Below are positions 1 to 3,000 of a stretch of DNA of 64,000 bases, one piece after another; position 1 is the stretch's first letter; each line of letters opens with the position of its first letter. The DNA is from Candidatus Nealsonbacteria bacterium. GTDB taxonomy: Bacteria; Patescibacteriota; Minisyncoccia; Minisyncoccales; MHMH01. The position numbers were made by a program. Location: NCBI GenBank assembly GCA_043813805.1, contig JBDRKR010000020.1:3130-67129 (forward strand), read 5' to 3'.

Positions 1-3000
1 AAGCTTCCCCAAAAATTCTTTGATAAAGTTTTGAGCATGGAAGTTTTAAGATATAACGACGATTTGCCCAAATGCTTAAATAACGTCCACGACGCAATGA
101 AAGACGGCGGTATTTTCGTTTTTACGGTTACTAACCTGTTCAGCTTCGGCCTGTTTCCCGTAAAATATAATTTACGCAAGTTATTCAATAAAATAGACCG
201 GAGCCGGGAATTGGTGCAGTATTTTGTGACCGAGCGCTCGATTAAAAAAGAGCTTGCTGAAGCCGATTTTTCAATTATCGCTTTTGAGAAAACGGGCCTT
301 CTTGCGGCCAATAAGTTTGTCGGGCGGTTTGTGCATACGGCCGAGGGAGCGGAAAAAATCATCAAGCTAAGCCGGAAATTATCGAAACTGCCGGTTATCA
401 ATCAGCTTTCCGACACGTTCATCATTGCGGTGACAGCAAATCCTGCAAAATAAATATACTGTTAAACACCGAGTGTCGAACATCGTGTCGGAAAACTTTT
501 CGGTTCGGATAATTGGATTAAAGAAATTGCGAATAATTTTAGTCTTGAATCAACATTAAAATTAAGAGGAAGGCCCAAAAAAGGGGCCTGACCCCTTTTC
601 CTCTCGAAAGCTGTCCCGCCAAGCGAGTAGCAAAATGAAAGAGGTTTAGCCTCTTTCATTTGAGAAATCGCCTTTTGGGCGGTTTTTTGGTAGAATAGAG
701 AAAGATAATTAAGTAAATAAAAATATGCCCTACATAGCAACATCTGTTGTTGTATTAGCCATTATTATACTAGCCGTAATTTACGCAGGAAGAAACAGGA
801 TGAGAAACATTGAGCAAGAGACGAAAAAAGAAAATAAACTAATGTTCTGGATCGGAATAGCAATTGTAGCAATAGCAGTGATATTTTTCTTAACAGAGAA
901 AGAAGAATTTGAGAATAAGATGTGGGCTGTTCCTATTTGGATGATGGGGATAGGATTAATAGCGGGTTCACGATATAGACTCATAAAATAATAAAATATG
1001 AAAAATTATCTTTCTATTGATAGCCTCTTTCATTTGAGAAGTCGCCTTTTGGGCGGTTTTTTGGTAGAATAGAATAATATGGAAGACAAAAAACCCCTAT
1101 ATTGGGAAATAGAGCCAAAAAAAGAGGAGGCAATAGTGAAAAAGACAAAGATGAAGATTAAAGGTGGTAATAGTTATCTTTTATTAGCGGCGTTTTCGTT
1201 CGCCATAATTAGTGCGGCTTTTTTAAGTTTTTGGATAGTGGTAGAAAAGCAACTCTTTAGCCTGTTCGGTTTTATTTTTTTCATACCCCCATTTTTTGTC
1301 AGTTTTTTGATTTCATACTTTCTTTACTCATTCGGCCTCAAAATTTTAAAAATTGAAGAAATTTCAAAATATAAAGTAATAAATTATATTTTAATAATTT
1401 CTACTGTAAGTTTGTTAGTAGCGCCTATATTGTCAGTATTCTTAAAGAGTGTATCAAACCAATACATTACTTATTTATTTAGTTTCCTTAGTTTTTTGAT
1501 TAATTTCTTTATTATAAAATATTATCTTGGACTTTCTGGGAAAAAACTCTGGCTATTTATTTTATATTCTGCAATCTTAGGCATATTACTTTCTAATATA
1601 GGCAAACTATTAAGATAATCCTGAGTTGATTATCAAACAGGTTCTAACATCGTCCAGTCCGCGGAGAGAGGACAAAAGCTCGCCAAAAGGGCGGTTTTTT
1701 GTTAGGATAAACAGAATCATAAAACTTATTATTATCAGCCAAAAGACATGTGGAAAGGGGCAATTTTCCGATTTAAGACTTTAATTTTATACAAATTATA
1801 CCACCATTTATACTGGCGCCATCTTAACAGAGGGTTTGTTTTCAACGAAAAGAAATATCGTTATTTTTATCATCCGTACAACACCACCTGGAGAAACGAA
1901 AGAAAAGTGGAAATACCGATTATCCGCGAGCTGTTGGAACAAAATAAAGGCAAAAGGATATTGGAGGTGGGCAGGGTCCTGCCTCATTATTTTCCGGTAT
2001 CTCACGATGTTCTGGATAAATACGAAAAAGGCAAGGACGTCATCAACGAAGACGTGGTTGATTTTACTCCCTCGAGAAACTATGATTTGATTGTGAGTAT
2101 ATCAACATTAGAACACGTCGGCTGGGGCGAGGCCTCAAAAGAACCCGGAAAAGCCGTCAAGGCGCTTGAGAACTTGAAAAAATGTTTAAATCCCGGCGGA
2201 AAGATAGTTTTTACCGTTCCCATCGGGCAAAATCCTCATCTGGATAATTTGATAAAAAATCAAACAATCAGAACCGATAAACTGTATTATTTTAACGAAA
2301 TAGTCATCGGCGTAATTCAAAAAACATGAACCCCGTTAAAAGTTTGCCATTATCTTACATGCCGAAATTAAAACAATTACTTTATTTTATTAAACTTCCG
2401 CCAAAAAAGACCAGCGGTTCTTTTTCGGCCACCTTTATCTATGCAAACTTCTAACGGGGTGAAGATATTAATTACCGGCATAACCGGTTTTGTCGGGTCC
2501 TACCTGGCAGAGTATTGTTTGGCCAAGAAAGGGGCCAAGGTTTATGGCACGATGCTTGCTGGAGAGAAGTTCCAGGGGACCAAACAAATTAAAGACAAAA
2601 TAGGTTTTTTTCAATGCAACCTCACCGATCAGGGCGCGGTAATCAGGCTTTTGAAGAAGTTAAGGCCGGACAAGATTTTTCATTTAGCCGCTTTGAGCGC
2701 TGTGGCGGTTTCCTGGAAATCCCCGGAGCAGATTTTATATAACAACATTTTGGCCGAACTGAATCTTTTTGATGCCATCAGAAAATTAAAGTTAAACCCG
2801 GTTATTCATATTGCCGGCTCAAGCGAACAATACGGCCTGGTTTCAAAAAAAGATCTGCCCGTCAAGGAAGACACCCCTTTTCATCCTCTTTCTCCCTATG
2901 CGGTTTCAAAGATAACTCAAGAAGCGCTGGCTTACCAGTATCATAAAAGCTACGGCTTAAAGACGGTCACGACTCGCGCTTTTAATCACACCGGGCCGAG

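Follow-up and report, generated by a model that had tools for sequence, protein, structure and literature searches.

Two 129-nt units, copy A and copy B, interrupt otherwise conserved gene junctions in a 64,000-nt stretch of a Candidatus Nealsonbacteria metagenome-assembled genome (contig JBDRKR010000020.1 of assembly GCA_043813805.1, positions 3,130 to 67,129; hereafter, the window), and each sits exactly on the start codon of a host gene. [quoted passage not shown] We consider it likely that they are non-autonomous, MITE-like members of a family which is spread across the Patescibacteria, or candidate phyla radiation (CPR), inserts into start codons and has a full-length form encoding a GIY-YIG nuclease; translation of the element would be coupled to that of the host gene, and the nuclease would mobilize the short copies in trans.

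Copy A (2331-2459) lies at the junction between a methyltransferase-like gene and rmd, which encodes a short-chain dehydrogenase/reductase (SDR). Its terminal inverted repeats (TIRs), at 2331-2344 (ccccgttaaaagtt) and 2446-2459 (aacttctaacgggg), are complementary at 13 of 14 positions, or at 16 of 17 when extended. A 42-codon open reading frame (ORF) runs from the host's old ATG (2326) to a TAA at 2452-2454, and 4 nt after this stop a regenerated GTG (2459) begins the 318-aa SDR ORF. The TGA stop of the methyltransferase-like gene (2327-2329) is located within the left TSD copy, a vestige of the original ATGA stop/start overlap. Copy B (33803-33931) is of the same length, with arms complementary at all 14 positions and TGAG on both sides, and its 42-codon ORF (33798-33926) is followed by a GTG (33931) which starts a 477-aa gene for a radical SAM protein. 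Every coordinate given in a preliminary description of the window proved correct on rechecking. The same description presented copy B as a second copy of the element, which holds for its length, TIRs, ORF length and TGAG duplication, but not for its interior; the interiors of copies A and B have no sequence relation, indicating that, within one family, the two represent separate subfamilies and are not recent sister copies.

The arm pairs of the two copies are not a chance occurrence. The exact 14-mer is found in the window only in the four arms, and the 21 matches in total include 17 with three mismatches, compared with about 16 expected from shuffled sequences. When either strand is folded as RNA or single-stranded DNA (ssDNA), the repeat stem closes both copies (z = -4.6 to -7.4). 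Neither of the 42-aa peptides matched a family in a Pfam search, and in Rfam the 64-kb window yielded no match at the gathering score and only sub-threshold chance matches at E ≤ 1. A consensus scan for promoters and terminators recovered nothing inside copy A or B, its sole match being a terminator-like stem at 2487-2513, within the host gene; an outward promoter, as might be imagined from the TTGTCT-16-TATATA look of the largest subfamily (cluster 1), was discarded for want of a promoter-like site in either copy in that scan.

Direct evidence of insertion comes from orthologous junctions that lack the element, which are available for both copies. Two loci (L121 and L122) preserve the methyltransferase-SDR synteny of the window, with 79% amino acid identity in the SDR, and their uninterrupted junction (...GATATGAGGATATTAATTACCGGC) equals the window sequence minus 2331-2463, precisely the ancestral ATGA overlap that had been reconstructed in silico. 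The methyltransferase orthologue of L121 (193 aa, with a weak match to Methyltransf_23) overlaps the SDR by 4 nt, and at the locus of P0003, the closest SDR relative with retrievable genomic context (79% amino acid identity), a 193-aa methyltransferase-like gene overlaps a 318-aa SDR by ATGA, the junction ...CCAAAAGATATGAGGATATTAATTACCGGC again corresponding to the window without 2331-2463. For copy B, the empty site is represented by four contigs (L224-L227; orthologues with 94%, 82% and 79% amino acid identity), in which the junction ...TTTTTATGAGAGTCGC... corresponds to the window minus 33803-33935 and the orthologues of the 477-aa radical SAM gene use an ATG start that forms an ATGA overlap with the gene before it. 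Consistent with the N-terminus MKILITG predicted for the SDR prior to insertion, uninterrupted homologues of 318-323 aa begin with MKILITG, MRILITG or MKVLITG, that is, M(K/R)(I/V)LITG. By contrast, the SDR start annotated by NCBI is an in-frame ATG within copy A (2441; P0001, 324 aa, MQTSNGVKILITG), and the annotated N-terminus MQTSNG is false, or at the least element-derived.

The two copies belong to a large family; further copies, whose absence would have told against the insertion, are abundant. A scan of one genome per species (GTDB species representatives) with the pattern CCCGTTARAAGT-N88-118-ACTTYTAACGGG identified at least 120 loci sharing the repeat [C/T]CCCGTTAGAAGT. The listed loci are nearly all from Patescibacteria, including Saccharibacteria, Nealson-, Kaiser-, Jorgensen-, Nomura-, Staskawicz-, Falkow- and Taylorbacteria as well as Kazan. 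Copies on short contigs of metagenome-assembled genomes (MAGs) labelled as Gammaproteobacteria (L026, L052) or Nitrospirae (L053) probably reflect mis-binning, the alternative being horizontal transfer. Viral contigs scanned for the element contained no copy, and a phage origin was rejected on these grounds.

Among the matches listed, 128 short copies were used for the family statistics. The units end in a 13-14-nt inverted repeat, [C/T]CCCGTTAGAAGT...ACTTCTAACGGG[G/A], which is near-invariant across phylum-level lineages. In 95 of the 128 copies the flanking 4 bp are perfectly identical, and the tetranucleotide varies (TGAA/TTCA in 38 copies, CATA/TATG in 14, TGGA/TCCA in 11, TTGA/TCAA in 9, and others), indicating a true duplication that does not belong to the element itself. 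C..G forms the outermost pair in 71 copies and T..A in 54, and in 3 the pair is mismatched; an A..T pair occurs in full-length units as well, and G..C is never found in short or full-length copies. The pairs C..G, T..A and A..T rebuild GTG, ATG and TTG, respectively, and the absent G..C would be the sole pair to yield a non-start codon, CTG.

All-against-all comparison of the interiors yields subfamilies of 35, 21, 12 and fewer members along with many singletons. Copy A groups with L017, L068 and L084 and is 85% identical to L171/L217 across 62 nt, whereas copy B falls into the largest subfamily. Each subfamily has its own internal hairpins, several of which keep their pairing through compensatory changes; in cluster 1, for instance, the TAGCC/GGCTA hairpin is replaced by TAAC/GTTA, CAGC/GCTG, TGAC/GTTA and others. 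Some internal hairpins are the terminal stem in miniature (CCCCGTTAGAAATTT..TTTCTAACGGGG in L070, GGCGGTAGAAGTCC..GGACTTCTACCGC in L017), and the internal hairpin of copy A is the counterpart of the latter. Shorter gene-less versions (43-95 nt) are also present, those of 43-80 nt forming local hairpins. One reading frame of the repeat is free of stops (..PLE(V/T)...LLTG..), such that in-frame insertions occur, as is the case with Rickettsia palindromic elements (RPEs).

Several loci have composite arrangements. In L163 (12179-12811), two in-frame mini-copies reside inside a 572-aa HsdM-like (N6 DNA methylase) ORF (11468-13186), to which they add the peptides ..PVRGVVSNG.. and ..TPLETGLAPSSLTG..; the same ORF starts with MTSNGV inside a right arm. 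Apparent tandem units sharing a TSD (TGAA-unit-TGAA-unit or TTGA-unit-TTGA-unit) in L129 (10108-10398), L130 (1967-2257) and L193 (111-515) suggest repeated insertion beside an existing copy, and L028 carries three copies within 8 kb.

The association with gene starts is pronounced. A regenerated start heading an ORF of at least 60 aa is found at 93 of the 128 copies, 79 of which make it from the terminal base plus TG, whereas in 14 the whole ATG is duplicated (TSD TATG). Under a stricter test, for which elements were excised in silico and the ORF had to be at least 80 aa long with no in-frame start more than 25 codons upstream, 56 of the 82 copies with perfect TSDs (68%) are on a gene start, as against 3.6 (~4%) expected at random sites with the same tetranucleotide. 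For TGAA/TTCA targets, the ratio of start to intergenic insertions is 19:4 compared with a background of 174:1164 in the same loci, so that survival of harmless insertions is not a sufficient explanation of the enrichment. At starts, the logo of the target reads A (92%), T (100%), G (100%), R, R, followed by A in 57%, and is close to the A-T-G-A-R target previously claimed; in one third of the TGAN targets, the start forms an ATGA overlap with the stop of an upstream gene. In several loci (L051, L101, L102, L105 and L119) the upstream old start has decayed and the downstream start is intact, suggesting that it is the regenerated start that is used. Orientation is biased too: interiors oriented by the host gene gave 272 plus-strand versus 52 minus-strand BLAST matches (approximately 26:3 in cluster 1). 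The family thus inserts between A and TGRR with a 4-bp TSD, rebuilds the start with its terminal base, and shows strong bias in both position and orientation. No Shine-Dalgarno-like motif stands out as a signal upstream of old or new starts, such motifs being rare at both, and a Shine-Dalgarno motif supplied by the element was sought but not found at the starts examined.

At many family sites, an in-frame ATG is present just inside the right arm (MTSNGV...). Furthermore, about ten loci share a second recurrent target, TTGA followed by C (TTGAC / GTCAA), which is not at a start codon (e.g. L012:5657, L042:985, L073:458 and L087:3452, as well as L082, L084, L097 and L107). This target resembles a -35 hexamer, and in some cases an ATG directly precedes TCAA.

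The full-length form of the element is exemplified by a 280-nt unit in L029 (Jorgensenbacteria), with the family arms and a TGAA TSD on a start codon. Its ORF, which begins at the host's old ATG (MNPVRSHWWYVYVLMSEKTGEWYIGST...KNRLKFFFAHDF, then a stop), encodes a GIY-YIG domain (PF01541, residues 9-74 of 93; E = 2e-17, with a score of 63.6 bits where the cut-off is 22.6). A metagenome scan for arms 241-271 nt apart recovered 101 loci with units of 263-293 nt, about half of which have intact GIY-YIG ORFs of 85-96 aa. The nuclease consists of a single domain of the SLX1/UPF0213 type, and its gene is the only one of the full-length unit, which measures 265-293 nt. The GIY and YIG tyrosines are conserved in the 34 intact ORFs, along with the Arg, the Glu and a C-terminal helix of basic character, and an AlphaFold2 model depicts a bare GIY-YIG fold with no DNA-binding extension. 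The best solved structures, both by sequence and by the fold of the model, are UPF0213 protein BH0048 and the nuclease domain of SLX1, with I-TevI and UvrC being weaker; the nearest UPF0213 structures are 1zg2 and 1ywl. In the protein database, 862 clusters at E < 1e-5, from Patescibacteria MAGs, carry the name 'GIY-YIG nuclease family protein' or that of 'excinuclease ABC subunit C'.

The nuclease gene is intimately fitted to the host gene. Of 34 distinct intact units located away from contig ends, 21 point in the direction of a host ORF that opens at the regenerated start, with no antisense case, and the other 13 lie elsewhere than at a start. In many copies the gene lacks start signals of its own. 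The nuclease ORF begins at the host's old ATG in 14 of the 34, with M-N/S-P-V-R-S encoded by the TSD plus the left arm. It stops at the right-arm TAA, 4 nt before the host start, in 20 units; 14 nt before the last base of the element in ten, nine of which use TGA; and at or just beyond the TGA of the TSD in the remaining four. In the copies inspected, the TGA stop 14 nt before the last base overlaps an in-frame ATG (..GTATGACTTCTAACGGGGTG) that leads into the host N-terminus MTSNGV, forming an ATGA coupling junction. The ORF of the element therefore occupies the former ATG of the host and ends a few nucleotides from the new start.

Short and full-length copies are connected through their ends. 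The left TIR of copy A with the preceding ATGAA codes for MNPVKS, and the N- and C-terminal codons of its ORF agree with those of the full-length GIY-YIG ORFs (MNPVRS...DF); the 42-codon ORFs of the window are remnants which keep only the repeat-encoded ends of the nuclease gene. Moreover, the right end of one short subfamily (...AAAATATTTTTTGCCCAGACTTCTAACGGGG) agrees with the 3' end of the nuclease gene, making it plausible that short copies are internal-deletion derivatives. No larger, transposase-type gene is enclosed by a repeat pair of up to 6 kb in 1.64 Mb of element-rich loci. The only repeat pair more than 320 bp apart, in L163 (633 nt), was dismissed as a larger element, being two mini-copies within the host gene mentioned above, and an apparent 1.6-kb pair in L078 resolved into unrelated small copies.

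Small GIY-YIG genes that are more distantly related occur in the same genomes and have their own, different repeat 'dialects'. Such genes with their own bounding repeats are found at L078:3457-3726 and L058:7085-7460; one distant gene has its start codon inside a perfect 17-bp inverted repeat (ATGAATTCAAAAATGTT, beginning ATGAATTC...), and another is accompanied by two direct hairpin-containing repeats of ~55 nt, in a layout like that of Ssn/SRM. The family also parasitises itself: at L074:6894-7299, a full-length unit has received a 123-nt short copy, which sits on the start codon (ATG TGG TAT...) of its GIY-YIG gene.

The features of the two copies and their host genes are collected in the table. 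ORFs of at least 150 aa in the window (41% G+C) are nearly uni-directional, with 48 on the plus and 7 on the minus strand. The ORFs examined near copies A and B include glycosyltransferase-, epimerase/SDR-, methyltransferase- and radical SAM-type genes, and there are two paralogues of the B12-binding radical SAM protein in the window, at 30148-31671 and 33931-35364. The sole tandem repeat of the window (43921-43965) comprises two 23-nt units with an 82% match. No tRNA genes are present in the 64 kb, and exact-sequence look-ups of the window proteins gave no match.

Table. Sequence features at the two insertion sites of the Nealsonbacteria window (ORF, open reading frame; SDR, short-chain dehydrogenase/reductase; TIR, terminal inverted repeat; TSD, target site duplication)
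Feature	Position (nt)	Strand	Basis
Upstream methyltransferase-like gene, 193 aa	1748..2329	+	ORF list; L121 orthologue
42-codon remnant ORF (MNPVKS...FIYANF, stop), from the host's old ATG to the right-repeat stop	2326..2454	+	
Left TSD of copy A, TGAA	2327..2330	+	Empty site in L121/L122, with a single TGAG here
Copy A, non-autonomous element of the L017/L068/L084 subfamily	2331..2459	+	Absent from L121/L122; subfamily alignment
Left TIR of copy A (CCCCGTTAAAAGTT)	2331..2344	+	Same repeat in 128 copies
Internal hairpin of copy A (approximate coordinates)	2399..2429	.	Folds and subfamily alignment
Right TIR of copy A (AACTTCTAACGGGG), with TAA 2452-2454 inside; last G is the first base of GTG	2446..2459	+	
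Right TSD of copy A, TGAA	2460..2463	+	
Host SDR, GDP-4-dehydro-6-deoxy-D-mannose reductase / GDP-mannose dehydratase family, 318 aa from GTG	2459..3415	+	
42-codon remnant ORF (MSPVRS...LYNDNF, stop), from the host's old ATG to the right-repeat TAA	33798..33926	+	
Left TSD of copy B, TGAG	33799..33802	+	Empty sites in L224-L227, with a single TGAG
Copy B, non-autonomous, in the largest subfamily (cluster 1, with 35 members)	33803..33931	+	Clustering, alignment
Left TIR of copy B (CCCCGTTAGAAGTT)	33803..33816	+	
Conserved A/T-rich hairpin of cluster 1 (CAGAAAAAATT-loop-AATTTTTTCTG)	33822..33848	.	Cluster 1 alignment and folds
Partial internal copy of the repeat end (TGACGGGG; cluster consensus TAACGGGG)	33857..33864	+	Cluster 1 alignment
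Small hairpin TAGCC-TTT-GGCTA	33896..33908	.	Cluster 1 alignment, read by eye
Right TIR of copy B, with TAA 33924-33926; last G begins GTG	33918..33931	+	
Right TSD of copy B, TGAG	33932..33935	+	
Host gene, B12-binding radical SAM protein, 477 aa from GTG	33931..35364	+	PF02310 and PF04055

The organization of the elements suggests how they might be expressed and moved. Ribosomes entering at the initiation region of the host gene would translate the nuclease, or the 42-codon remnant, first, thereby unwinding the repeat stem, and termination-reinitiation would then hand them on to the host gene. In copies A and B, the interior of the nuclease gene would have been lost, with hairpin-forming sequence in its place, and the repeats, frame and stop would have been kept. 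The nuclease, provided in trans by a full-length copy elsewhere in the genome, could recognise the hairpin or cruciform of the paired repeats and cut each strand a few nucleotides beyond the stem, producing a 4-nt stagger; the preference for TSDs of the TNNA type would fit a symmetric requirement on both strands beside the stem. The orientation bias might stem from selection at the level of the element, given that only co-oriented, in-frame start insertions express the nuclease, although selection at the level of the host, or a strand-specific ssDNA mechanism combined with gene-strand bias, could produce it too. A bolder proposal, which we put forward tentatively and would not yet back against its negation, is that the ~90-aa GIY-YIG nuclease is itself the mobility enzyme; the family would then represent a new mechanistic class and the smallest autonomous prokaryotic element known (~0.28 kb), one that selects start sites and has neither promoter nor ribosome-binding site, and often no start codon, of its own. 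The case for the family as a new transposon class is substantial but unproven.

A number of observations weigh against this interpretation. To our knowledge, GIY-YIG enzymes are hydrolytic, with no known strand transfer, and the model has no joining step; the nuclease is a candidate for the mover of the element. The structural model of the nuclease is moderately confident (pLDDT 75). The search of the window, which covers 64 kb of the 69.5-kb contig, for a GIY-YIG gene yielded none, so that trans-mobilization in this particular genome is an assumption, and copies A and B may be fossils. The preliminary description credited the element with built-in translational coupling. The full-length units, in which the nuclease ORF ends either 4 nt ahead of the regenerated start or in an ATGA overlap with it, strengthen this idea, which applies only partly to the short copies: the short ORF is open to the TAA of the repeat in 15 of the 27 copies in which the frame permits it and stops early in all others with an upstream start (15 of 57 reach the TAA). 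Coupling is therefore not universal among short copies. No Shine-Dalgarno-like motif upstream of the old or new starts points to a route of initiation, and ATG 2441 could be the true SDR start at copy A. Finally, start enrichment and orientation bias could in part be due to selection or replication-strand bias rather than targeting, the genes of the window being distributed 48:7 in favour of one strand.

Among the alternatives, these might be ordinary MITEs moved by a classical transposase, for example a DDE enzyme with a 4-bp stagger, with the GIY-YIG gene being a trapped passenger, accessory or addiction gene. TIRs with a fixed 4-bp TSD are a hallmark of DDE transposition, and GIY-YIG nucleases have no known strand-transfer chemistry; in addition, the CCCGTTAGAAG repeat with its TNNA-type 4-bp TSD resembles the ends of piggyBac/IS1380 elements. 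However, in the 1.64 Mb that were searched no larger gene of the transposase type is enclosed by a repeat pair, and a DDE parent of the piggyBac/IS1380 type, whose gene did not turn up in any repeat pair with a spacing of up to 6 kb, was retained only as a rival. Moreover, the repeats themselves supply the first six codons of the nuclease ORF as well as the last three, and its stop is placed relative to the host start, a close fit that a passenger would hardly show. Distantly related small GIY-YIG genes carry different repeats, and the pairing of nuclease and repeat has also been published for Ssn (PMC11893778). We regard this scenario as unlikely. The elements could instead be primarily regulatory modules of the host, whose stem and hairpins in the mRNA control initiation through uORF (upstream ORF)-dependent unfolding and which were retained or spread for their benefit. 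The stable folds, the regenerated start at the foot of a 14-bp stem, the compensatory changes maintaining internal hairpins, the strong orientation bias and the start enrichment beyond survival of tolerated sites all accord with regulation, but both loci are free of the insertion in close relatives, the functions of the host genes have nothing in common, the interiors of the subfamilies are wholly different, neither an Rfam family nor a signal for a promoter or terminator is present, and the hairpins could equally serve recognition as ssDNA. A primarily regulatory role thus appears improbable, although as a secondary effect regulation is compatible with the mobile family outlined above.

It is very improbable that the nuclease gene is a free-standing homing endonuclease gene, copied by homologous recombination, with short copies being the products of decay in situ. 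GIY-YIG enzymes are classical homing endonucleases, the protein weakly matches TIGR01453 (group I intron endonuclease), and, as with the seg genes of phage T4, the elements are located between genes or at gene ends. Nevertheless, homing yields neither TIRs nor TSDs and operates at a single locus, as opposed to the many unrelated genes hit here (including the three copies in L028); the recurrence of the same short interior at different genes and in different genomes means that short units moved as such; and the protein lacks a DNA-binding extension. Least credible, to the point of being negligible, is a conserved small gene or leader peptide native to the junctions. An open 42-codon ORF with similar ends in both copies would be in its favour, but the spacer is absent from the orthologous junctions, so that the empty sites refute it; the peptides are unrelated beyond the repeat-encoded residues and match no family, and the ORFs of most members are interrupted. 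The preliminary description had named a conserved small gene as the outcome that would overturn the insertion, and none came to light. An integron attC site was also considered and rejected: both strands have GTTAGAAG first and CTTCTAAC last, the opposite of RYYYAAC ... GTTRRRY, and TSDs and empty sites do not fit such a site.

If a mobile start-codon-inserting family with a nuclease-encoding form is the correct interpretation, its parasitic strategy would consist in using the host's initiation signals, rebuilding the start and passing the ribosomes on, which would render insertions nearly harmless in the dense, intergenic-poor genomes of CPR bacteria. Should the nuclease prove to be the mobility enzyme, GIY-YIG transposition chemistry would be added to the bacterial repertoire. 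The elements matter for annotation as well. The nuclease is often mislabelled as 'excinuclease ABC subunit C', and gene callers put starts inside the element, as with the element-derived MQTSNG of the SDR and MTSNGV... at other loci, so that start-site annotation in CPR genomes is affected systematically. As for applications, CPR DNA can conveniently be recognised in metagenomes by the near-invariant 13-nt repeat, and nuclease-repeat pairs could be a source of sequence- and structure-specific nucleases.

The family can be compared with several known systems. Like the bacterial MITEs (Correia/NEMIS, ERIC and MITEAba12), its short members are of small size (113-135 nt), have TIRs and a fixed TSD, occur in many copies and subfamilies, are devoid of genes, have ends in common with a longer coding element and are missing from the corresponding sites in relatives. 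Unlike in MITEs, the partner is a ~280-nt element with a GIY-YIG nuclease and not a DDE, HUH, serine or tyrosine transposase, and most copies are located exactly on start codons, in one orientation, with the start codon rebuilt. RPEs are likewise palindromic mobile repeats of ~100-150 nt which reside in reduced genomes and do not destroy genes, but they insert in frame within coding sequences, whereas the CPR family is mostly found at start codons; we know of no autonomous partner or start-codon hijack for RPEs. With IS200/IS605 and REP/RAYT, the family has in common the presumed recognition of ends as DNA hairpins, a very small element and, possibly, strand-specific insertion, but those elements rely on HUH Y1 transposases with covalent intermediates, have subterminal hairpins and produce no TSD. 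The seg genes of phage T4 are similarly selfish GIY-YIG genes wedged between host genes and using host expression signals, whereas homing endonucleases are larger, have DNA-binding domains, lack inverted repeats and TSDs, and are confined to one locus.

In a full-text search of the literature, no description came up of this repeat, of MITEs that insert into start codons in CPR, or of a GIY-YIG transposon bounded by repeats, and a single close paper emerged (PMC11893778), on the Ssn nucleases. These are 94-aa single-domain GIY-YIG nucleases, the genes of which are flanked by NTS/SRM hairpin repeats dispersed in hundreds of copies (PMC11893778; Chenal et al., Nat Commun 2025). They bind the hairpin repeats in ssDNA and cut a few nucleotides 5' of the hairpin, in the variable flank (PMC11893778), and Rickettsia is among the SRM-rich genomes (PMC11893778). 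The authors likened NTS-ssnA-NTS to an insertion sequence and proposed domestication and a role in transformation (PMC11893778). The terms 'duplication', 'excis-', 'start codon', 'Patescibacteria' and 'Candidatus' are absent from the text of that paper, and searches of it accordingly found no account of TSDs, empty sites, start-codon insertion, shared translation or CPR members. Both systems combine a single-domain GIY-YIG nuclease of ~90-95 aa with a gene bracketed by a repeat that is also scattered in gene-less form, and for both there is enrichment in symbionts that have small genomes. The difference lies in the repeats: Ssn genes have a local hairpin of 20-50 nt on each side, whereas the CPR element has one arm of 13-14 nt per end, so that the whole unit forms the loop, and some short copies contain a nested, repeat-like local hairpin. 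Judged by architecture, the Ssn system (clade cd10448) is the closest published counterpart of the CPR element, and if the latter is mobile in the manner proposed here, its TSDs and empty sites would provide direct genomic evidence of mobility, going beyond the resemblance to insertion sequences noted for Ssn.

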